DNA of 41,381 nt from Atractiella rhizophila (Eukaryota): contig MU271589.1 in the NCBI GenBank assembly GCA_021432655.1, positions 1 to 41,381 of the forward strand. The letters run 5' to 3'. Of the stretch, positions 2,669 to 17,130 are shown in pieces. The notes under the pieces were generated by a model. The model made no database searches and was not told where the DNA came from. It saw only the letters and a program-made list of their open reading frames with translations. Within the stretch, counting starts at the first letter, position 1. Every line of letters starts with the position of its first letter. Both the position numbers and the translations under genes were made by a program.

Positions 2669-3524
2669 NNNNNNNNNNNNNNNNNNNNNNNNNNNNNNNN
2701 NNNNNNNNNNNNNNNNNNNNNNNNNNNNNNNNNNNNNNNNNNNNNNNNNNNNNNNNNNNNNNNNNNNNNNNNNNNNNNNNNNNNNNNNNNNNNNNNNNNN
2801 NNNNNNNNNNNNNNNNNNNNNNNNNNNNNNNNNNNNNNNNNNNNNNNNNNNNNNNNNNNNNNNNNNNNNNNNNNNNNNNNNNNNNNNNNNNNNNNNNNNN
2901 NNNNNNNNNNNNNNNNNNNNNNNNNNNNNNNNNNNNNNNNNNNNNNNNNNNNNNNNNNNNNNNNNNNNNNNNNNNNNNNNNNNNNNNNNNNNNNNNNNNN
3001 NNNNNNNNNNNNNNNNNNNNNNNNNNNNNNNNNNNNNNNNNNNNNNNNNNNNNNNNNNNNNNNNNNNNNNNNNNNNNNNNNNNNNNNNNNNNNNNNNNNN
3101 NNNNNNNNNNNNNNNNNNNNNNNNNNNNNNNNNNNNNNNNNNNNNNNNNNNNNNNNNNNNNNNNNNNNNNNNNNNNNNNNNNNNNNNNNNNNNNNNNNNN
3201 NNNNNNNNNNNNNNNNNNNNNNNNNNNNNNNNNNNNNNNNNNNNNNNNNNNNNNNNNNNNNNNNNNNNNNNNNNNNNNNNNNNNNNNNNNNNNNNNNNNN
3301 NNNNNNNNNNNNNNNNNNNNNNNNNNNNNNNNNNNNNNNNNNNNNNNNNNNNNNNNNNNNNNNNNNNNNNNNNNNNNNNNNNNNNNNNNNNNNNNNNNNN
3401 NNNNNNNNNNNNNNNNNNNNNNNNNNNNNNNNNNNNNNNNNNNNNNNNNNNNNNNNNNNNNNNNNNNNNNNNNNNNNNNNNNNNNNNNNNNNNNNNNNNN
3501 NNNNNNNNNNNNNNNNNNNNNNNN
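2669..3524. other. Assembly gap
   Basis: 856 N. Confidence 1.
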
Positions 3525-3813
3525 GTCGTCTGCTCAGCTTCTTTGTGGCAAATAATTACAGTTGCGGTAGTAGCTTCCCTGCATCCCTCAGCAACGAGTA
3601 GGAGCTCAGGAGTGGCCGGGAAGTGCGGGACTTTGCAGGTGTCGAAAACCGCGACACCGTTCTTTGTACCCAACTTTCGATTACCTTTCCATGCAACCGA
3701 CGTAAATAGTATTATTTACATAGTTACCCCTGGACACACACGCTGCGTCTTACAACTTTAGTAGCTTGCTGATTTTCTTGTACCGGTTTAAGACGCCGTC
3801 GTTCTTTTGTTCC

Positions 3814-3908
3814 TTGTTTGGTCCTATTCTCATGAAATGGCGTGCACTTGGTCGTTGAGTTTGGCACAACAAGTGCTGCGGAAACGCGAGCAGTCAGGTG
3901 ATACAAGA
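3814..3908. repeat. 95-bp exact copy of 7370-7464 (upstream region of the NuSAP-like gene)
   Basis: ttgtttggtcctattctcatg...gtcaggtgatacaaga is identical at both positions; homology stops exactly at the LTR start (3909). Confidence 0.95.
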
Positions 3909-4280
3909 TGTGAATACGGCGTATACGGAAAGGTTAAGGTTTAGAAATGCGGGAGTGCTGGATGCGAGTTGAGACTGGGAACAAGTCTGAATTTACATAG
4001 TTGTACGATAGGCCTTATATAAACATGAAATACCAATGATACCATAAACAATCATCGAATATGCAAGAGAGCAAAGTAACAATCATAAGAGACGGAATAG
4101 GGGAGTAAGGAGAGATACTAACAATCATTAAAGGATCACCTAATGCGTGACCTGAATGTTGCAATGAGGGGGAGAATGATGGGGAGAGAAGAGGTGTTGG
4201 AAGGACAGGGAATTCCCCAAAGTGGTGTCGAAGCAGTAGACGGGAACCATGACTCTAACGGAGGAGTCATCGTATCCACA
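3909..4280 (-). mobile_element. 3' LTR (372 bp) of a Ty3/Gypsy element
   Basis: TG...CA ends with 9/10 inverted termini TGTGAATACG / CGTATCCACA; minus-strand polypurine tract GAGAAGGGGATGA at 4281-4293; lies downstream of an integrase C-terminus. Confidence 0.88.
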
Positions 4281-7737: not shown

Positions 7738-9066
7738 ATGCTACTCAGGCTCTCTCTAATATCCTTTGCGTTTCTTGCGCTTTGCCTTCCCTCCCTCGCT
7801 CAGGCGTTGCACGGTCAGAAGAGAGATCATACCGATCTGTCAAAGCTCTTAGGACCTTTAACACCATCAACAGATGAGGGTATGGACGACGCTGGATCGC
7901 TCATCAGCGAACTGAACGCAGACGTGTCATCTCTTCTTGAGGGTCATTCTGTCTGCTCCCATTTCATGTTGGTTCTAAACATTCGTCACAGCTCTTCCCG
8001 ATTCGGATGTAACGGCCTCCTTCGTTCCTTCTCTCAAAGCGATCACTTCAGCTCTCACTGGCGAAAGCACTTACGCCGTGAAGGAACTCCTCTCATGTCT
8101 TTCCGTTCTGAACTCGATGGCCGTCCCTGAAGATTACAAGTGCCTCTCTCCATCTGGAGCTTCTTTTACGGCTGTCAGAACGGCTATGACCGCTATGATT
8201 GAACGCAGTGCTGAAATACTGGGTCCAAAGAGTGTTAATCTCCTCCTAGGAAGTGAGTAACTGATTTATCCACAAGTTGTTCTTGATTGACATACGAAAA
8301 TAGAGCTTGACGAAGCGCTGGACCCCTTGACCCCTCTCTTTCCTCCCCTGAAGGATATTCGAGAACATTTCTCCTCCGCACTGAAGAGCATCGCCGCCTC
8401 TCTCTCCGGCAATGCAGTCACGGCCTTTTCCCTGCTGCAATCTTGTCTACTGGATGCTCCAGTCGCACCATACAACCCCGCCTGCCTCATTTCATCGTTC
8501 TCGCCGATTCAAAACATTTTCCCCACCTTCTTCGACCAAACGCTCGGCATTCTCCTGCCTACAGAAATCGACGGCTTAACGGAAGCTCTCACCCCCGTCT
8601 TTAATAAAGGACCCCTGAAAGACACGTACAACGATATTAAGAACGCTTTGAAATCGGTCGCCTCCTCAGTTGGAGGGAATGGCGCAACACAGTTAGATCT
8701 ACTGGCAGGATGTTTGACGGATGCATTGTTTAGCGATGGAACAAGGGTAGCTCAGCTCTGCACGAGCAAAGAGTTGCTGGATCCGAACGTCACTGCTCTC
8801 GCGTGAGTCTACCTCTCACTCTCAAATATGTTCTGTTGCTGATTTAGTTTTGGACGAACAGGGGTTCGTACGATCAGCTGCACAACGTGCTGGCACCCAG
8901 TGTTGTCATGGACCTTAAAGACCTCGTTGTGCAAGTTGGGGCAAGTAAAGAAGCCGAGTCTGTCAGAAGTTATTTTGTGAAGCAGGGTCGGGATACTCCT
9001 GTTGAGGTTCAAAGGATTCTGCAAGGTCGAAGAAAGCGCAGAATGACGCGGATGTTATCAACCTGA
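7738..9066 (+). CDS. Secreted alpha-helical repeat protein of unknown function
   Basis: Signal peptide MLLRLSLISFAFLALCLPSLAQA then KR; exons 7738-7942, 7992-8252, 8304-8802, 8862-9066 in phase; three LKxIxxxLxG...L.xCL repeats. Confidence 0.7.
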
Positions 9067-9161
9067 AGCTAGTGAAGTTTCGAAAATGAGGCACGAAGAA
9101 GCGAAAGTTGCGTTTGTGCACGTGAGGCGCTTACTTTGCTTGCAAGCAAAGTCGACCATCG

Positions 9162-9225
9162 CCTCACGATCAGGTCTGCTGCTCCTCACTCGCAAGCAGT
9201 CTTCATACGCGTTCTCTTTTTAAGT
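9162..9225 (+). repeat. Split direct repeat A1 (64 bp)
   Basis: cctcacgatcaggtctgc...tctttttaagt, identical to 16370-16433. Confidence 0.95.
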
Positions 9226-9344
9226 ACTGTCCAACACACCTCCCTACTCCTCCTGCTCCTTCCTAGCTTTCTTCAACCTCCTATCTCTCTTCCAGCATCG
9301 AAACGCGTCCCCCTCCCCCCTTCCGATCAGCCTTTTGTGCGGAC

Positions 9345-11955
9345 ATGGCGGACATCGTAGAGATTGACATGGACGCTCCGGACGCGTCTGAGGTAGCGCT
9401 AGGTCCTCAAGTTAGATCTAGAGAGGATTTGAGACTCGAAAACGAACAAATTCGAGCGCAACGCGTCGCCGAAACGAGCTCAGAGACGCGTCCTTCGGGC
9501 GATGGCACATCTCAATCTGGTTTCTTGAACTCTGGCTTGTCGAAGGACGAGTTTATGATCCTTTTTAGCGAAGGCACGAAGCTAGACAACCACGAAAGAA
9601 ATCTCATCGACTTTGTCTCGGCTTGGGAATCAATGGACGAATTAGCAAAGCTGACACAGGGCAGGATGAAAAAGTGGTTTGGCGAACACAGATGGTTGTC
9701 TAAAGGAGGTCAAGGAGAGTGGTTTCCTTATTCAAAACCACCCCCTCAGCGTTTCCAACCTCCTACTCCTCCCACGGTCATTGATGAGGACATCGACGAG
9801 TCGGTAACTCAACCTCTCCTTGACGGCAAACGCAACCCTAACCAGGCTCACAACCCTTCCTCCACGCTCAACACCGCCCCCACCGCTCCGCCTCCCGACA
9901 AAACGCTCAAAGCCTCAGATACGTTCAAAATCGCTTCTACGTTAGTTCAGCGCTTCAGCCTCGGAGAAATCGAATGGATCCAACTCTGCGACTCTTTTGC
10001 CCTGTCCACGCGCGAAATCGAGCTTCTAACCCATGTCAAACGAATCGTCGATGTGGAAATTTCAGGCTTTAAATCTCTCAACGCTAGTCTTTCCGATTAC
10101 ATCGCCGATATCCAGCAAGAACTTTGCACTGTCATGGCCCGCGAGCGTGTTGCAAAGAAAGAACTCGCGAAACTACTCCCCGGCTCCTTAGAAGACACAC
10201 ATCCTCCCATCCGCCCTCCAAAACGGCCAGCTTCCCCCTTCCAAATCCCAGTTACCACAGAACAATTCGAGGAAGCTAGAAAGAAAGCTAGATTACTCCC
10301 ATCTGGGAACGTCGCCCCCAAACCAGTCGAAGCCGACGAAGATCAAAAATCTAGGAGAGACCGCCTAAACGCGCATATAGCGAATTTAACCGACCCTTTA
10401 GTCAAAGTGAATTTGAACCTCAGCCCAGACGATGAACTTATGGTGAGTCCCTCTCTTCTACCATTTTCTCACACCTTCTATTTAGTTACTCGCTACTCCT
10501 CTGTCTTCTCCATATCCCTTCCTTCCCCGATCCTCCCTTCCACGCGGCCAAATGGGCCATTACTCGTTAATCGCGGCCAAATGGGCCATTACTCGTTAAT
10601 CGCAGCCAAATGGGCTATTCCTTGCATCCAAAAGGGCTCTGCATCCCTAGCCAAATGGGCTCTACCTTTCTAGCCAAATGGGCTTCACCTTCATAGCCAA
10701 ATGGGCTCTACCTTCCTAGCCAAATGGGCTCCATGTTTTTAGCCAAATGGGCTCTACCTTATTAGCCAAGATGGGCTCTACCTTACTAGCCAAACGGGCT
10801 CTACCTTCCTAACCAAATGGGCCCTACCTCTTTCATAGAATCGAAGCGCCTTACGTTACAACCAATTGAACCTCACAATCTGCCTTTCAATTCTTTTGAG
10901 CTAATCTCATTTTGCCCTTTCCCTAGACCGAACATCCCCAACTCCAGCACTGGCTCTTGAAAAATCCCCACGCCTATGTCCCCATCATTGCCCTTGCCGG
11001 AAAAGATAGGAAGAAACTCGAGGACTCCTTCACTAAAAGTTCAGCAGCCCTCAATTCATCTGACGCATCTGTCCAGGAGAAGGCTCACAAGGCCTTGGGA
11101 GCGAAAATCCTCAAAGACTTTGAGGCCGTGGAAATGTCGATCTGTAGGCAAACCTGGGAGCTCTGGTATCGCTGGTTACTCGACGTCCTTGAGACCAACG
11201 ATAGGCAAGTAGATGCCGGCTACGCTCCCCTCCTTCGACCATTCTTCAACTGGCTCTGCTCCAGACACGACAAACTCAGGCGTGAGGATGAATCAAGTGA
11301 CGGTTGGGCAGCCATTCTCGCCACTGATATCGAAATCCGAAAGAACCATGCCGCCGCCCCTAATTGCCACCTAGGGACTTCGGATCGTTGGGAGAAGATT
11401 TTCCAAAGATGGTACTTCAAATATCTGGGTCAAACCGCAAAGAGCGATACGGTCGCTTCCACTTGGGTTGACGCTTTCGGAAACCCCCTCTTGAAATCGG
11501 CCGCCCCTTCGTCCTCTGACAAACCTAACACTAAAGGCCCCTCCAACTACATTTCTGGAAACCCCTTTCGTCCGAACTCCAACCCCTCCGATTCATATCG
11601 CCCTAACTACCGCCAATCAAACCAGAAGGACAGGGATAAAGAAGGGAGTACTCCCTTTCATGGAGAAAACGACGGCACCCTTCCCTGCATCAGATGCAAC
11701 AACCCTGGCCACGTCGTCAAGGAGTGCAAAGCAAAGAAAATCGCTAATTGCCCCTCGTCGAAAAAGGATCTCGCCGCCTCCACTCAGCAGGATGGCAAAC
11801 TGCTCCGTCAAAGAGACGGTAGCAAGATTTGCTTCTTCCATCAACAGCGCTCTGGCTGCAAGTGGGGAGAGAGATGCCTTGGTGGACTCCATATTTGTTC
11901 CCTCTGCGAAAGAGACAATTGTGGAGCTTCTCGACACGCTCCCCGTCCCCATTGA
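9345..11955 (+). CDS. Gag-like ORF1 of the YR element (exons 9345-10442, 10927-11955; ~708 aa)
   Basis: Phase-0 intron GTGAGT...GCTAAT...CCCTAG joins the two ORFs in frame; CCHC knuckle CIRCNNPGHVVKEC followed by a Cys/His cluster ICFFHQQRSGCKWGERCLGGLHICSLC. Confidence 0.82.
10543..10829 (+). repeat. Minisatellite inside the gag intron (~12 units, core GCCAAATGGGC, period 29 then ~23 bp)
   Basis: cgcggccaaatgggccattactcgttaat twice, then about ten tagccaaatgggctctaccttNN-type units. Confidence 0.95.
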
Positions 11956-13809
11956 GGTTCCCTTTCCTGTTTTCGAACCAACAGTTTCAATTCAATTCCC
12001 TGGTATCCCCTCGCATCAAATTATCTCACCTTAACAACGCCTCCGAATTTCGCAATCTTATAATCGAGTGCGGGCTACAACACCAATTTCTTAACGACAA
12101 AGTCAATATCCCTTACGGCATTACTAACGGTTTCGATCTCGGTATAGTCAACATCGACCCTATAAAAATCATCGCTCCGAACACGTCCCTCTCCAAAATG
12201 CGTCCCCGAGCAAATTCAATTCGTGAAGACTTTTTGCGAAGAAGAAAAAAAGAACTAGGACGGCTTCTCGGCCCCTTCTCCGAAATCGATTTGGATAATC
12301 ATTTCAATGGCCTTTGGCGCACCAGCCCCATCACAGTTGTCGACAAAGCCGGAGCACCGGGAGAATTTCGCTTGGTAATCGATTTCTCGCGCGATGCTTC
12401 ATTAAAAGCCCCAGATGGTACCATCACTAAGTTCGCCTCCATCAACTCCTTCATTAATCCAGACGACTTCCCATGCGAATGGACCACCTTCTCTGACACA
12501 TTAGCTCTTTTCCTCTCCCTCCCAGAAGACTCTGAAGCCCTAGTTCTCGATGTCAAAGCCGCATTTCGTACCTTCTCTACCCATCCGAAATCTCGTCCCT
12601 TTCTCTGCTTTCAAGACTTCGACGGCAACTTCTGGTCCGATTCCGTGGGCTCCTTTGGCGTCTCCTCGTGTCCAGGCATTTTCGGACAAATTGACGACTG
12701 TTGGGTAGAGATAGTTAGGTCTAAAGTGTGTAAGTTGGTAGTGAAATGGGTCGATGATCACGTTCTCTCTCTTCCGTTTCGCATTCCCTGGGTGTATCCT
12801 GGGATAAGGAGGATCTTCTCCCTCTACTCCAGCGCCTCGGGGTCCACATGCATCCCAAAAAGTGCTTCGACTTCGCGCCGGTCTTCAAGTACATCGGCTT
12901 CATCTGGGACATCAAAAATAAATCCGTCTCTTTACCCCGCCTCAAATTCTTAAAGGCTATTTTTACTCGTATCCTTCTGGCTCAACGATGGTTTCACATT
13001 TCAAAGAAATGATGCGTTCGTGTCTTTACCCCTTCCCTCTTCGCCACCTATCATTGCAGAAGCTGACCCCGCTTAGAGAATCGTTGCAGGGCTTTCTTTC
13101 ACACATCGTACCCATCTTCCCCTTCCTTCGCCCTTACTTGCGCAAAGTCTATAAACTCACAGCGGCCTTTATCGAAAAAGAAAAGCGCGTTAGTAAGGCT
13201 TACTCCTCTTCGATTCGACTTAACGTTGCCGACCCTCTGCGACGAGACCTCCTTTTCTGGTTCGACACCCTATTGTCTTCCCCACCGATCCTCTTCCCCA
13301 GCAACCCAAATTCAGTTTTACGTTTGCAATGGTTCGGCGACTCTTCCACTTCGTGGGGTTGTGCTTCCTTACTAGGCTTTCGCTGGTCAGCTTGGAAGTG
13401 GACTTTGCAGAAGCCAGAAAGAAAAATCGGCCTTGGAGAGACTTTGGCAGTCGAACTTGGAATTTACCTCCTTCACTCGCTCGCTTCGTCACCACAACAC
13501 CCTCTCAACAAACCCCAAACCAGCCTCCGCGCAGTCGAAGTCCTCACAGATAATATGGGGGTCCTGGGTATTTTGGAAAAAGGCTGGGCTGATAACGAAG
13601 AACACAACGACTCGTTAAAACAAATCTTCGCCACCTGTCGTTCTCTTAACATCGTTCTCATTCCTGTTTATGTACGTTCTGAAGACAATCTCGCTGATCT
13701 CCCCTCTCGTGGTATTTTCTCTTCTCTAGATTCATCAGATTTTGTTAGCATTCAGCCTCCGTCCTCACTTTCCTCTGTTGTTGTGGGTTTCCCCGTTGCA
13801 CCTTATTAG
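11660..13809 (+). CDS. Reverse transcriptase-RNase H (pol) of the YR element; frameshifted in this assembly; predicted intron 13016-13076
   Basis: Motifs FRLVIDFS, LDVKAAFR, SFGVSSCPGIFG, WVDD, YIGFIWD (shifted frame); RNase H acidic residues in FGDSS, GETLAV, TDN, NLADLPSRG; indels near 12033, 12770-12800 and ~12970; start codon uncertain. Confidence 0.88.
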
Positions 13810-14063
13810 CTTATTTCTCATGTCTCATTTCACTTCCTGTTGAAACCATCTACACTCCCATCACTTCATCTCGTATTCCCGCTCATCTCAGTAGCATCTT
13901 TATCTCACATAGCATTATCTTATCTCAGCCCGCCTCGTCTGTGTAATCATATTAGTTGTAGCCCATTTTTGAGTCACGCTTAGAAGTGGAATGCTCACTC
14001 ACTCATATCAGTACACTCTCCTCCCCCCTGACCTTCTTGCTCCCCTTGTTTTTTTTTCACACC

Positions 14064-15716
14064 ATGTTCAAAAATTACCCTCCTCCCCCTCGCACCTCCA
14101 CCAGAACCTCCCGACGCCCACAAACAATCATACCCCCTCAACCTCTCACCGCACCGTCCGAAAGAGACAAAGCACGCCTTTTGCCTTACTTTCCAACTTC
14201 ACATCTAAATCAGGACTGCGATTTCTCGAGACTTCTCTCAGATTTTGCCCAAGCGGTTTCAGAACTAGACAGTTTTAAACTCGGCAGCAATCCCTTAACA
14301 CCCAAAGTCAAAGCCTCGGAAAGGATGTTTTGTTGGTCAGGTATCTTCTTCTAGTGCATTGTCTCTTTCCACATTGCATTAACACAGTTCCGCTCAACAA
14401 TAGGCCCTTCCATACCCTCCCAAGGACACCTCATTATTAACCATCCTGTCATCACTCATCTCCAAAAACTCGCGACCAAGAACGCCTGGGCCCCCGCAAC
14501 TTTGGAAACCTACTCCTCTGCACTCCCCGAGTTTATGGAATTCTGCGATAAAATGGGAATTCCCCACTACCAACGCTTCCCTATGACCCCCCAGTTGGTT
14601 TCCTCCTTCGTTTTATGGGCTTCTGGCCCCAAGGATTCATACCCTGGCGCATTGGGTCCGAAGAAGGAGATCGCTGTTAGCACGGCCACAGGCTACGTCA
14701 GTGCCTTTCGCGCATGGCACTTCATTCAGGGTTACCCTTGGGTATGGGACGACAAACCCCATGAACTCGTTCTATGGAGTCGCGGACTCGCCCGGCTCCA
14801 GGGAAACTCCCATAAGAAGCCCCCTCGCCCCGCCATAACTCTGCAGATGATCTCCCTTCTCATCGACAATCTCAGTCACGACGATTGCTTCGACGCCGCG
14901 GTTCTAGCCTGCGCCTTGGTCACCTTCTTTAGTCTCTTCCGCCTGGGGGAAACCACAGTTCGCAGCGTCCGCAATTACGACCCACTAGACGCGATCACCA
15001 GGAAAGATGTCGTCTATCATCTATCACCCGATGGTATCCCCTTTTACAAAATCCTCCTTCGTCACGACAAGACGCTGGACGTGAGTGACATCCGTATCTT
15101 GCGTTTCGTGCAATTAAGGGTTGGCAAATGGTGGATTATGGATCTTGTCAACAATCATCTAGCCCGCAATCTCTCCTCCGATCCAGACGCACATTTCTTC
15201 GGCTACTTCTCTTCCAAGTCCAAGTCGTTTCGTCCTCTCACCAAAGACGCATACATCACCCGTGTCAACCAAGTTTGGTCTACCTTTGGTTACCCTCACA
15301 TAACCGGTCACAGTCATCGCATTGGTGGCGCTTCCTTAATGCTTAACCTGGGATTCGAAATCGAGTTTATTCGCATCATCGGCCGCTGGAAGTCTATCTC
15401 TTATGCCCTTTACCTGCGTCTCTTGGACGAGTTTATTCCCAACAGCTTAGCTAAAATGACATTCCTTATCGACATGAAGAACCGTTCCCAATTCGCTCCC
15501 TCCCTCACGTCAAACCCTCAGGTCATCAAAGATCTGGCCGTTTTGGAACAGCCTTACCTCGACACCTTCCAACAGTCGTCCTCTTCAAAGGGAAGAAACA
15601 TCGCAAAGAAAGTCGAAGCTGCTCAGTCCCGTTCCATCAAGGAAAGGAAACTTGCAACGGTCAAAAATGACGCAGCTCACTTTAGGCTGGGAGCTGGTCG
15701 TGCCTCTCATGGGTAG
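14064..15716 (+). CDS. Tyrosine recombinase of the YR element (exons 14064-14340, 14404-15716; ~529 aa)
   Basis: Catalytic R (LFRLGET), HxxR (GHSHRIGG), W (GRWKS), Y (YALYLR); N-terminal AWAPATLETYSSAL..F..FCD; 63-bp GT-AG intron contains an in-frame TAG. Confidence 0.93.
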
Positions 15717-15758
15717 GTCAGAGCGCTAGCTGCTCTCCCAGGCACTCGCAGCCTTTTG

Positions 15759-15922
15759 GGGTAAGCGCTTCTGCCCTTTTCAGCGGGGTCTTGCGCTTTG
15801 TAGTCGAACAAAACAATAGTTAGTTATTCATTTCTTTCATCCTCTATTTCGACTACAAAGTGCAACAACCCACACATCGCTCTATAGTATAAAGCAAAGT
15901 TGCCATCCTCAGCTTGCACAAA
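15759..15922 (+). repeat. Split direct repeat B1 (164 bp)
   Basis: Matches 16500-16664 with 3 substitutions and 1 indel; holds an 18-bp stem (15791-15808 / 15848-15865). Confidence 0.95.
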
Positions 15923-16369
15923 AGATCACATAGTCTTTTTGAACTTGAAGATCTCATTGGGCTATCTCAGTGATTCGAACTTGAGTCAATACAAACAAAT
16001 TCTGATATACGATTGGCAAAAGCAATTACAGGTGAACGAGCCGTGATGAACGCCGAAATTCGAAACAAAGGATAAGCTGACATCATCAAACGAATTAAGC
16101 CCAGAAGATCTAACATGACGATATAGCAGTTATTGGGTTCAGAGGCACAGTCAATAGATTTACAAAGAATCTATACAAAATAGAGGCAGTCTAAGACCTG
16201 CGAGGAGATTGTCGTAGAGGCTAAGTGGCAAGTCAAAACGAGAGGCACTTTGTAAAGAAGGCTCACAGTGTGAATGGGAGAACGAGTCTTTGCCGGAGTC
16301 TTTCCGGCAGCAGTCTTTTTGTTGCCAGTTTTACTGGGTGCTTTGCCCACTGTCTTCCCCGAAAAAAAA

Positions 16370-16433
16370 CCTCACGATCAGGTCTGCTGCTCCTCACTCG
16401 CAAGCAGTCTTCATACGCGTTCTCTTTTTAAGT
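16370..16433 (+). repeat. Split direct repeat A2
   Basis: Identical to 9162-9225; preceded by A8. Confidence 0.95.
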
Positions 16434-16499
16434 CCCACCCACCCGTCCCCTTGCTTCCTCCAAGTCTATAGAGCGTACTATCCAAATCCTCGTTGGTCA

Positions 16500-16664
16500 G
16501 GGTGAGCGCTTCTGCCCTTTTTCAGCGGGGTCTTGCGCTTTGTAGTCGAACAAAACAATAGTTAGTTATTCATTTCTTTCATCCTCTATTTCGACTACAA
16601 AGTGCAACAACCCACACATCGCCCCATAGTATAAAGCAAAGTTGCCATCCTCAGCTTGCACAAA
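16500..16664 (+). repeat. Split direct repeat B2 (probable right end of element)
   Basis: Copy of 15759-15922 ending cctcagcttgcacaaa. Confidence 0.95.
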
Positions 16665-17130
16665 TGGTAGGTGCCAACTCCATTATCTCATAAGTATACT
16701 ACACTGGGGCTTATTGTCCTTCTAATCACAACGTCGCCTCCAAGATTTCTTTATATCACGGATGTCAATATAACGTCAGAGTTCAAATCACAGTCTGTGT
16801 CTGGAACTTGATATTCGCTCCAGCCCAAGCACCCGCAGGCGACCTTAGATGTTTATGTCGAAACAGAAGCTCTCAAGTATGCGGTTTTACCAGTGCATGA
16901 AAGCACAATGTTTGAGGACTTATTGTCTCGACGTCTTGATGCATTCGACTCTGAGAGTTCAGTTTTCGAGTTTCTGGCCTCAATGACTTGCTCGGGTTCG
17001 TAACAATTGGGATGTGATTTTACGCGACAGCTCTTCAATTTTCTGACTTTAAATTGGCATTCAACTCGACTTACAATACATTACTCCGTTGACATACTCT
17101 TTATCTTGACTGATTCTCCTGTTGTAGACC

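Follow-up and report, generated by a model that had tools for sequence, protein, structure and literature searches.

The stretch of DNA analysed here (the window) comprises 41,381 nt of contig MU271589.1 from the Atractiella rhizophila assembly GCA_021432655.1, and all coordinates are given as window positions. It carries an element with gag, reverse transcriptase (RT)-RNase H and tyrosine recombinase (YR) genes and without a methyltransferase, which is confirmed as a Ngaro-like YR retrotransposon. Each of the three genes is interrupted by one GT-AG intron (Table 1). All three introns are confirmed as genuine and are spliced at exactly the predicted bases.

Table 1. Features of the YR element and of the adjoining sequence
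Feature	Position	Strand	Length and remarks
Insertion proper	9068-15922	+	6855 nt: 5' repeat, gag, pol, YR, 3' repeat B1
Probable full 5' repeat A1	9068-9225	+	158 nt = 94 nt unique to this end (9068-9161) + 64-nt A
gag exon 1	9345-10442	+	366 codons from ATG at 9345
Intron 1 (gag)	10443-10926	+	484 nt, GTGAGT..CTAAT..TAG
gag exon 2	10927-11955	+	342 codons + stop; CCHC zinc knuckle, C-terminal Cys/His-rich motif
pol exon 1 (reverse transcriptase)	11792-13015	+	putative start at ATG 11792; WVDD motif 12747-12758
Intron 2 (pol)	13016-13076	+	61 nt, GTTCGT..CTGAC..TAG
pol exon 2 (RT thumb end + RNase H)	13077-13809	+	stop 13807-13809
YR exon 1	14064-14340	+	92 codons + 1 base, ATG at 14064
Intron 3 (YR)	14341-14403	+	63 nt, GTATCT..TTAAC..TAG
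YR exon 2 (tyrosine recombinase catalytic domain)	14404-15716	+	R, K, H-x-x-R, W, Y all present
3' repeat B1	15759-15922	+	24-nt inverted repeat, poly(A) point 15846, splice donor 15819
Host DNA	15923-16361	-	439 nt; last exon + 3' end of minus-strand host gene, own intron 16221-16266
Separate fragment	16362-16664	+	A8, A2 (16370-16433), 66-nt unique spacer, B2 (16500-16664)

Gene content of the element

The stop-to-stop frames of the forward strand between 9267 and 15716 comprise a gag-like gene in two pieces, a pol gene distributed over several frames and a YR gene with one interrupting stop. Pfam analysis of the six raw open reading frames (ORFs) identified nothing even at E<=10 save a weak zinc knuckle, with no RT or recombinase match, and phmmer comparison of the RT and RNase H ORFs with solved structures gave nothing meaningful. 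An exhaustive protein search with the RT part returned 810 homologues at E<=0.001, the closest of which is 39% identical. The best 150 of these 810 were aligned back to the window; all 150 cover 12000-12790, the RT portion, and 43 of them also cover the RNase H portion at 13078-13800, with RNase H alignments that stop at 13713-13806. Among 20 RT homologues scanned with Pfam, RVT_1 was identified in three, and RVT_3, DNA_pol_viral_C and a weak Phage_integrase domain in one each. The RVT_3 domain (protein P0020) and the DNA_pol_viral_C domain (P0076) fall within the segments aligned to the window, which provides transitive Pfam support. Several of the RT homologues combine RT, RNase H and YR in one protein and align with the pol as well as the YR portion of the window.

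The search with the YR ORF identified 18 homologous proteins, and the profile of this family exhibits similarity to Cre recombinase (E 2e-7) spanning both catalytic stretches. Residues R179, K222, H302, W328 and Y336 are invariant in 13 sequences and R305 is found in at least 90% of the rows. The homologues, the Pfam domains in relatives and the Cre match support the RT, RNase H and YR identities, and with them the description as a YR retrotransposon that the initial annotation had given from the letters alone. Its claim of an intact YR active site likewise stands, the catalytic residues all being present.

Relatives of the element were recovered from metagenomes at 80 loci. The second gag exon matches the second upstream ORF in 17 metagenome relatives (tblastn, best E 1.7e-9), and its C-terminal Cys/His-rich motif is also present in relatives; its zf-CCHC match (E=0.024) is weaker than the Pfam cut-off. 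For gag exon 1, no relative was detected by tblastn or hhalign against the metagenome relatives, and the proposal that it is the counterpart of their first upstream ORF was dropped (no tblastn match, hhalign probability 0.2%). Word-indexed protein searches found no long pol or gag models, which is weak evidence, and an Rfam scan of 8800-16900 provided no match.

The pol stop (13809) and the YR ATG (14064) are separated by only 254 nt with no ORF of methyltransferase size, and a methyltransferase is therefore considered absent. The element is assigned as Ngaro-like because of this gene content and because of its host group, the Pucciniomycotina. Ngaro-type YR retrotransposons of Basidiomycota were reportedly described by Goodwin and Poulter in 2004. 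A DIRS1-like identity was rejected, as there are no long inverted repeats and there is no room for a methyltransferase, and a Crypton was rejected since RT and RNase H are present. According to passages of a fungal survey (PMC3783388), Ngaro elements occur in Pucciniomycotina and Agaricomycotina, and DIRS elements outside Dikarya.

Introns and their splicing

Without intron 1, gag reads as one frame that stays open over 708 codons, starting with the ATG at 9345; without intron 3, YR likewise stays open over 529 codons, starting with the ATG at 14064. Removal of intron 2 links window frame 0 to frame 1. When the introns are retained, in-frame stops are met at 10671-10673 (intron 1), 13074-13076 (intron 2) and 14352-14354 (TAG, intron 3). 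The initial annotation had reported such stops for the gag and YR introns, which is borne out, and the pol intron contains one as well. Its statement that each intron restores the reading frame is correct for gag and YR; pol in this copy also has about five frame-shifting insertions. The introns of the element are similar to both introns of the adjacent host gene (8253-8303 and 8803-8861; GTGAGT..CTGAT..AG). Intron 1 contains tandem repeats composed of a 29-nt unit (2.7 copies) and a 23-nt unit (9.8 copies) with the common core GCCAAATGGGC.

Contigs of four sequencing runs (X1, X3, X4 and X5) were compared with the window for joints, loose ends and depth. We infer that X3, X4 and X5 are transcriptomes because host introns are skipped, the depth is very uneven and X5 exhibits an A8 tail behind 15846. 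The host-gene GT..AG introns are skipped at 8252>8304 in X3, X4 and X5 and at 8802>8862 in X3 and X4. X1 behaves as DNA, with even depth and no joints at the host introns or at any of the three element introns (0/3).

Intron 3 is skipped by the joint 14338>14402 (63 nt skipped) at a depth of 127.6 in X3, 4.91 in X4 and 8.99 in X5; with the cut moved by +2 the joint has GT..AG ends and equals 14341-14403, and its X3 depth is the entire X3 depth at that place. Intron 2 is skipped by the joint 13015>13077 (61 nt) in X3 at a depth of 6.91 with a shorter side of 30 letters, and X3 has zero depth at 13031 inside this intron. No joint of intron 1 is listed in the contigs of any run, and its support in X3 consists of loose ends. 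One X3 contig ending at 10442 continues with 17 letters equal to 10927-10943, and in two X3 contigs that begin at 10926 the 12 letters in front match 10430-10441. Since positions 10926 and 10442 both carry G, the junction joins 10442 to 10927. The X3 depth in the bin 10616-10942 is 1.18, compared to 19.3 in the next bin. The spliced joints and loose ends in X3, X4 and X5 confirm the exact ends of the three GT-AG introns that had been predicted from the sequence. Each of the three begins with GT, ends with AG, has a branch-like motif near its 3' end and is cut out of RNA at precisely the predicted bases; for introns 1 and 2 this removal is seen in one run taken to be RNA.

The closest YR homologue (P0001, hypothetical protein BT69DRAFT_1249148 of Atractiella rhizophila, 97% identical) starts with exon 1 fused to exon 2 as predicted (..MFCWS-G-PSIPS..), and a second YR copy (P0002, 66% identity) is decayed. 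Five more distant fungal YR homologues (30-35% identical) are colinear across the intron 3 junction, with the W-x-G motif conserved and no 21-residue insert. For pol, all 150 listed RT homologues match frame 0 up to approximately 12758-12788, and 66 of the 150 go on in frame 2 from approximately 12797 to approximately 12961. RNase H pieces are aligned in frame 1 for 43 of the 150, and 32 of these 43 begin at 13078, which is the first full codon past intron 2. The frame-0 stretch 12962-13015, spliced to 13077, also aligns with homologues (W-L-x-x..T..). A 47-nt intron at 12762-12808 and another donor or acceptor for intron 2 (12968 or 13059) were considered and dropped, as both are explained by extra letters of the window at these places.

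The pol gene would start with the ATG at 11792, and its first exon is read across frames 2>0>1>0>2>0 in the window copy, with a frame 0 stop at 12951-12953. Extra letters are present in the window at 12033 (one), 12204 (one), 12245 (two), 12769-12777 (five) and 12960 (one) and are missing from the only X1 contig and the only X3 contig over pol. Deleting these ten letters together with intron 2 leaves an uninterrupted frame of 747 codons that extends from 11495 through the stop at 13809; with the intron kept, the frame is closed. The sites are all homopolymers or low-complexity runs, all are insertions and all are clustered within 930 nt, and the flanks have few gaps. The extra letters may be local assembly errors rather than mutations.

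Further splicing is observed in and around the element. An alternative donor (GTAAGT at 12730) joins the intron 2 acceptor in X3, skipping 347 nt (12729>13077) at a depth of 3.7 vs 6.91 for intron 2; this splice deletes the RT active-site region and shifts the frame. A 60-nt GT-AG intron on the minus strand (13939-13998, GTGAGC..CTAAT..ACAG) is skipped by the joint 13938>13999 (CT..AC), which sits in the same X3 contig as the intron 3 splice, so the spacer between pol and YR also gives rise to a spliced antisense RNA. Repeat B carries a splice donor (GTTAGT) at 15819 and 16561. Contigs of X3 and X4 end at 15818, X4 skips 16561-16629 (69 nt, GT..AG), and beyond 16560 contigs of X3 and X4 change to unrelated sequence, as though the donor were joined to exons further downstream at other places. 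The poly(A) addition point at 15846 in B1 is marked by an X5 loose end of A8. The depth of X3 is 104-209 over 13232-15922 (RNase H end and YR) vs 10-26 over the gag exons and RT, an excess of about 8 times that might reflect a transcript of YR on its own, antisense RNA or the activity of truncated copies.

Three metagenome relatives with flanks and complete repeats (L001, L003 and L075) have long open frames, and their alignments over pol and YR run on without interruption, with no introns there. Because these relatives have intact long frames without introns at the positions concerned, the pol and YR introns look lineage-specific. A conserved intron of approximately 106 nt at the gag/pol border of the relatives was considered and dropped, since the gap relative to P0165 is the coding end of gag and its stop. 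In L001, L002, L007, L010, L015, L022, L037 and others, gag ends in a conserved Cys/His-rich motif, and in most of the loci shown this motif is followed by TGA and then by CC within the next three bases, with pol continuing directly in another frame. Such an arrangement is more in keeping with frameshifting or readthrough than with splicing. Short tandem arrays with 17-75-nt units are present in non-coding parts of L036 (1959-2094), L067 (1258-1417), L046 (6829-7120) and L033 (8247-8601) and are reminiscent of the intron 1 repeat array in the window element.

Boundaries, repeats and insertion site

The initial annotation had treated 9113-16664 as one unit, and this does not hold: the insertion itself is 9068-15922, 439 nt of the stated range belong to the host and the A2-B2 block stands apart. 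Other strains contain an empty allele, in which the joint 9067>15923 skips 6855 nt with a single C in place (depth 171.2, side 24 in X1; 181.9, side 151 in X3). X4 joins 9067>15937 with 14 diverged letters between, and another X1 contig has different letters past 15922 as a loose end. The sequence from 15923 to 16361 is identified as host DNA because it is joined directly to 9067 in X1, X3 and X4. The window copy is a recent insertion that is polymorphic for presence and absence. Pieces of the element in other runs are approximately 99.6% identical, while the flanks differ by approximately 1-5%. The proposal of a young and intact element is thus upheld as regards its youth, by the insertion polymorphism and the approximately 99.6% identity to pieces in other runs; its intactness is uncertain given the pol frameshifts.

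The A repeats are 64 nt long and 100% identical (9162-9225 and 16370-16433), so the claim of identical A copies is correct over this length; the 165-nt B repeats are 97.6% alike (15759-15922 vs 16500-16664). Because A is 139-159 nt in relatives, A1 probably spans all 158 nt of 9068-9225, with A2 being 5'-truncated. A1 holds a perfect 20-nt palindrome (9133-9152) within a longer imperfect hairpin (9121-9168), and the 5' part carries inverted and direct look-alikes of the B end, including a 29-nt imperfect inverted match at 9113-9141. The palindrome and the B-end look-alikes are possible recombinase sites. The summed X1 depth is 1504.7 at 8981-9307 vs approximately 300-560 across the rest of the element, and the 5' repeat region may be present in many more copies, such as small non-autonomous pieces.

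The insertion site lies between two convergent host genes, one at 7900-9067 on the plus strand and the other at 15923-16361 on the minus strand, and the element lies one base past the TGA at 9064-9066. The intron of the minus-strand gene is skipped by the joint 16220>16267 (CT..AC) at an X3 depth of 1155.6, and the frame stops soon after this intron. The bounds of the A2-B2 fragment are given by X1 and X3 contigs that differ after 16361 and by an X1 contig that differs before 16665. This fragment disrupts a lysine-rich coding exon of the highly expressed minus-strand host gene.

In split direct repeats of the order A1-internal-B1A2-B2, B1 abuts A2. The window copy has the right order but lacks the abutment, as the end of B1 (15922) and the start of A2 (16370) are 447 nt apart, 439 of them host DNA. 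The canonical arrangement A1-internal-B1A2-spacer-B2, with a spacer of 103-244 nt, is found in L001, L003 and L075 and also in L021, in which A1 is cut by the contig start. The element family therefore probably has the B1-A2 abutment that is missing from the window copy. The two pieces 440 nt apart could derive from two insertions each reduced by repeat recombination, or from excision of a circle followed by local re-insertion. An origin of the 66-nt spacer as a splice product of the sequence after A1 and before B1 was dropped, as no similarity was found. Because it has no canonical B1-A2 junction and possibly carries pol frameshifts, the window copy may itself be a dead end.

Propagation of the element and comparison with known systems

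Retrotransposons are expected to lose introns, as they copy through RNA. In the DNA-like run X1, introns 1 and 2 each occur in two or more sequence variants, in copies that may have arisen by reverse transcription. One diverged X1 contig (10338-10730 and 10831-11046) retains both splice sites of intron 1 with a different repeat array, and 54 of its 609 aligned letters are different. Intron 2 is present in X1 in two lengths (61 and 63 nt), with CT added behind 13031 in 313.4 of a depth of 396.9. A change of length that three does not divide is accepted here, in line with non-coding sequence. The lack of joints in X1, together with contigs inside introns 1 and 2, fits an unspliced template.

It is considered probable, as the initial annotation had soundly inferred, that the proteins are made from spliced RNA and that the intron-keeping copies were reverse transcribed from RNA that escaped splicing. 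Splicing of the RNA removes three introns of the ordinary spliceosomal kind, and full-length Gag (708 aa), RT-RNase H (approximately 650-750 aa) and recombinase (529 aa) can be encoded by spliced RNA only. Unspliced RNA meets a stop codon in every gene and would serve as the reverse-transcription template for new copies, presumably being selected for this role. The roles of messenger and template would then be divided between different RNA populations, as can be likened to retroviruses. New copies most likely come from unspliced RNA because the genomic copies keep their introns, and no full-length element protein can come from the presumed template, in which stops interrupt gag, pol and YR alike.

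Several points weigh against this reading. The run records label X3 and X5 as '?' and X4 as 'DNA?', and none is recorded as RNA. Splicing of introns 1 and 2 is seen in X3 alone, with short overhangs of 12-30 letters. The pol gene of the window copy is not open even once spliced and is full of stops. Two of the 150 listed homologues align through intron 2 in frame 1, although hardly any residue within the intron is identical in these two alignments and a far better fit of that query segment lies upstream in frame 2. No unspliced full-length transcript, cDNA or circle is found among the contigs of the runs, and since contigs drop rare variants, intron-less DNA copies could be overlooked. The encoded recombinase could in principle move DNA directly, which would likewise keep the introns.

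A more far-reaching version, which is rather doubtful, makes splicing a sorting device: a template signal would lie inside an intron, only intron-containing RNA would be reverse transcribed, and the introns would have been gained by the element as part of an obligatory switch between messenger and genome. As a matter of speculation, the approximately 12 repeats with the GCCAAATGGGC core in the 484-nt gag intron are the leading candidate for such a signal.

The main rival to reverse transcription of unspliced RNA holds that the introns are kept because the element moves wholly or partly as DNA, with the recombinase excising a circle and re-inserting it, as is thought for Cryptons. The catalytic residues required of the recombinase are intact, and the insertion 9068-15922 lacks a terminal duplication and stops precisely with the B end, as if a circle had been opened at one site, although the empty allele may simply be ancestral. 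The A2-spacer-B2 piece 440 nt away looks like the reciprocal product or footprint of repeat recombination, and the window copy is rearranged at exactly the junction where B1 abuts A2 in relatives. However, no contig joining the B end to the 5' end, as a circle junction would, is listed in runs X1, X3, X4 and X5, and the RT-RNase H frame that is open for 747 codons (extra letters and intron 2 out) argues for continued selection on reverse transcription. Movement at the DNA level accounts for intron retention and for the split 3' end but not for the preserved RT-RNase H frame, and is judged unlikely.

Splicing could also be incidental, that is cryptic or imposed by the host and perhaps feeding RNA silencing, with copies spread by segmental duplication. 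In Cryptococcus, spliceosomes stalled on transposon transcripts trigger the production of small interfering RNA. In favour of this reading, the alternative donor at 12730 uses the same acceptor as intron 2 and destroys the frame, the minus-strand intron 13939-13998 attests antisense transcription, and further splices start from the donor within B. This explanation is very unlikely, because all three introns are needed to open the frames and the spliced products are colinear with intron-less homologues. The insertion is moreover present in some strains and missing from others, the host DNA around it is unique, and pieces in other runs are approximately 99.6% identical to the element, whereas the flanks differ by approximately 1-5%. 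Domestication into immobile host genes, in which introns would be unremarkable, would agree with the annotation of one YR copy as an ordinary protein-coding gene (P0001) and with the eightfold depth of the YR half over the gag-RT half in X3, but is highly improbable for a 6855-nt unit that as a whole is polymorphic for presence and absence, has several X1 copies including a diverged one as well as the decayed copy P0002, and bears terminal repeats of the family type.

What appears to be new here is a Ngaro-like element in which all three genes require splicing, with support at the level of junctions; intron-bearing retroelements themselves are already known. The element shares with Ngaro the order of a gag-like gene, RT-RNase H and YR, the lack of methyltransferase, protease and DDE integrase, and the A1..B1..A2..B2 direct repeats. 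It differs from Ngaro in that spliceosomal introns interrupt all three genes, in that host DNA separates B1 and A2 of the window copy, and in that its RT and YR share only 30-40% identity with their closest matches. Some YR elements are said to contain introns. Kangaroo-1, reportedly described by Duncan and colleagues in 2002, is said to be a YR retrotransposon with split direct repeats; unlike the window element it is algal and reportedly falls on the PAT/DIRS1 side of these elements. Retroviruses have unspliced RNA as their genome, package only this RNA and use spliced RNA for some translation; their unspliced RNA still encodes Gag-Pol, in contrast to that of the window element, in which none of the three genes is open throughout. 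In the plant LTR (long terminal repeat) element Ogre, removal of an intron restores the pol frame.

For kangaroo-1, the YR element of Volvox carteri, one sentence in PMC1636488 states that an intron was identified in transcripts. A search of the fungal survey PMC3783388 and of a DIRS1 overview (PMC3266345) for the terms 'intron' and 'splic' gave no occurrence in the text searched, and the mention of kangaroo-1 is the only one found in the literature on introns in Ngaro and DIRS elements, in which subscription papers might hold a fungal Ngaro precedent. Penelope-like elements are called 'highly unusual among retroelements' for keeping introns in a passage of a 2021 paper (PMC8557442). Like the window element they retain spliceosomal introns in genomic copies. 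They differ in their GIY-YIG endonuclease, their target-primed reverse transcription and the location of their introns mostly in the 5' UTR (untranslated region), whereas the window element has a tyrosine recombinase as its integrase and introns within coding frames. Cryptons, the fungal YR DNA transposons, are said to have a related tyrosine recombinase and intron-containing genes (background in part of PMC13465315), but they lack the RT and RNase H that are both present here.

The known exceptions that keep introns (Penelope-like elements, kangaroo-1 and Ogre) are few and poorly understood. The window element offers a natural system for the separation of translated and template RNA, for intron gain in a mobile element and for possible DNA movement by means of a recombinase. 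Annotation of transposons that is based on ORFs misses or fragments such elements. Elsewhere in the window, the region 3001-4000 has a G+C content of 22.6% vs approximately 50% in the remainder, and the next kilobase exhibits a strong G and A skew.

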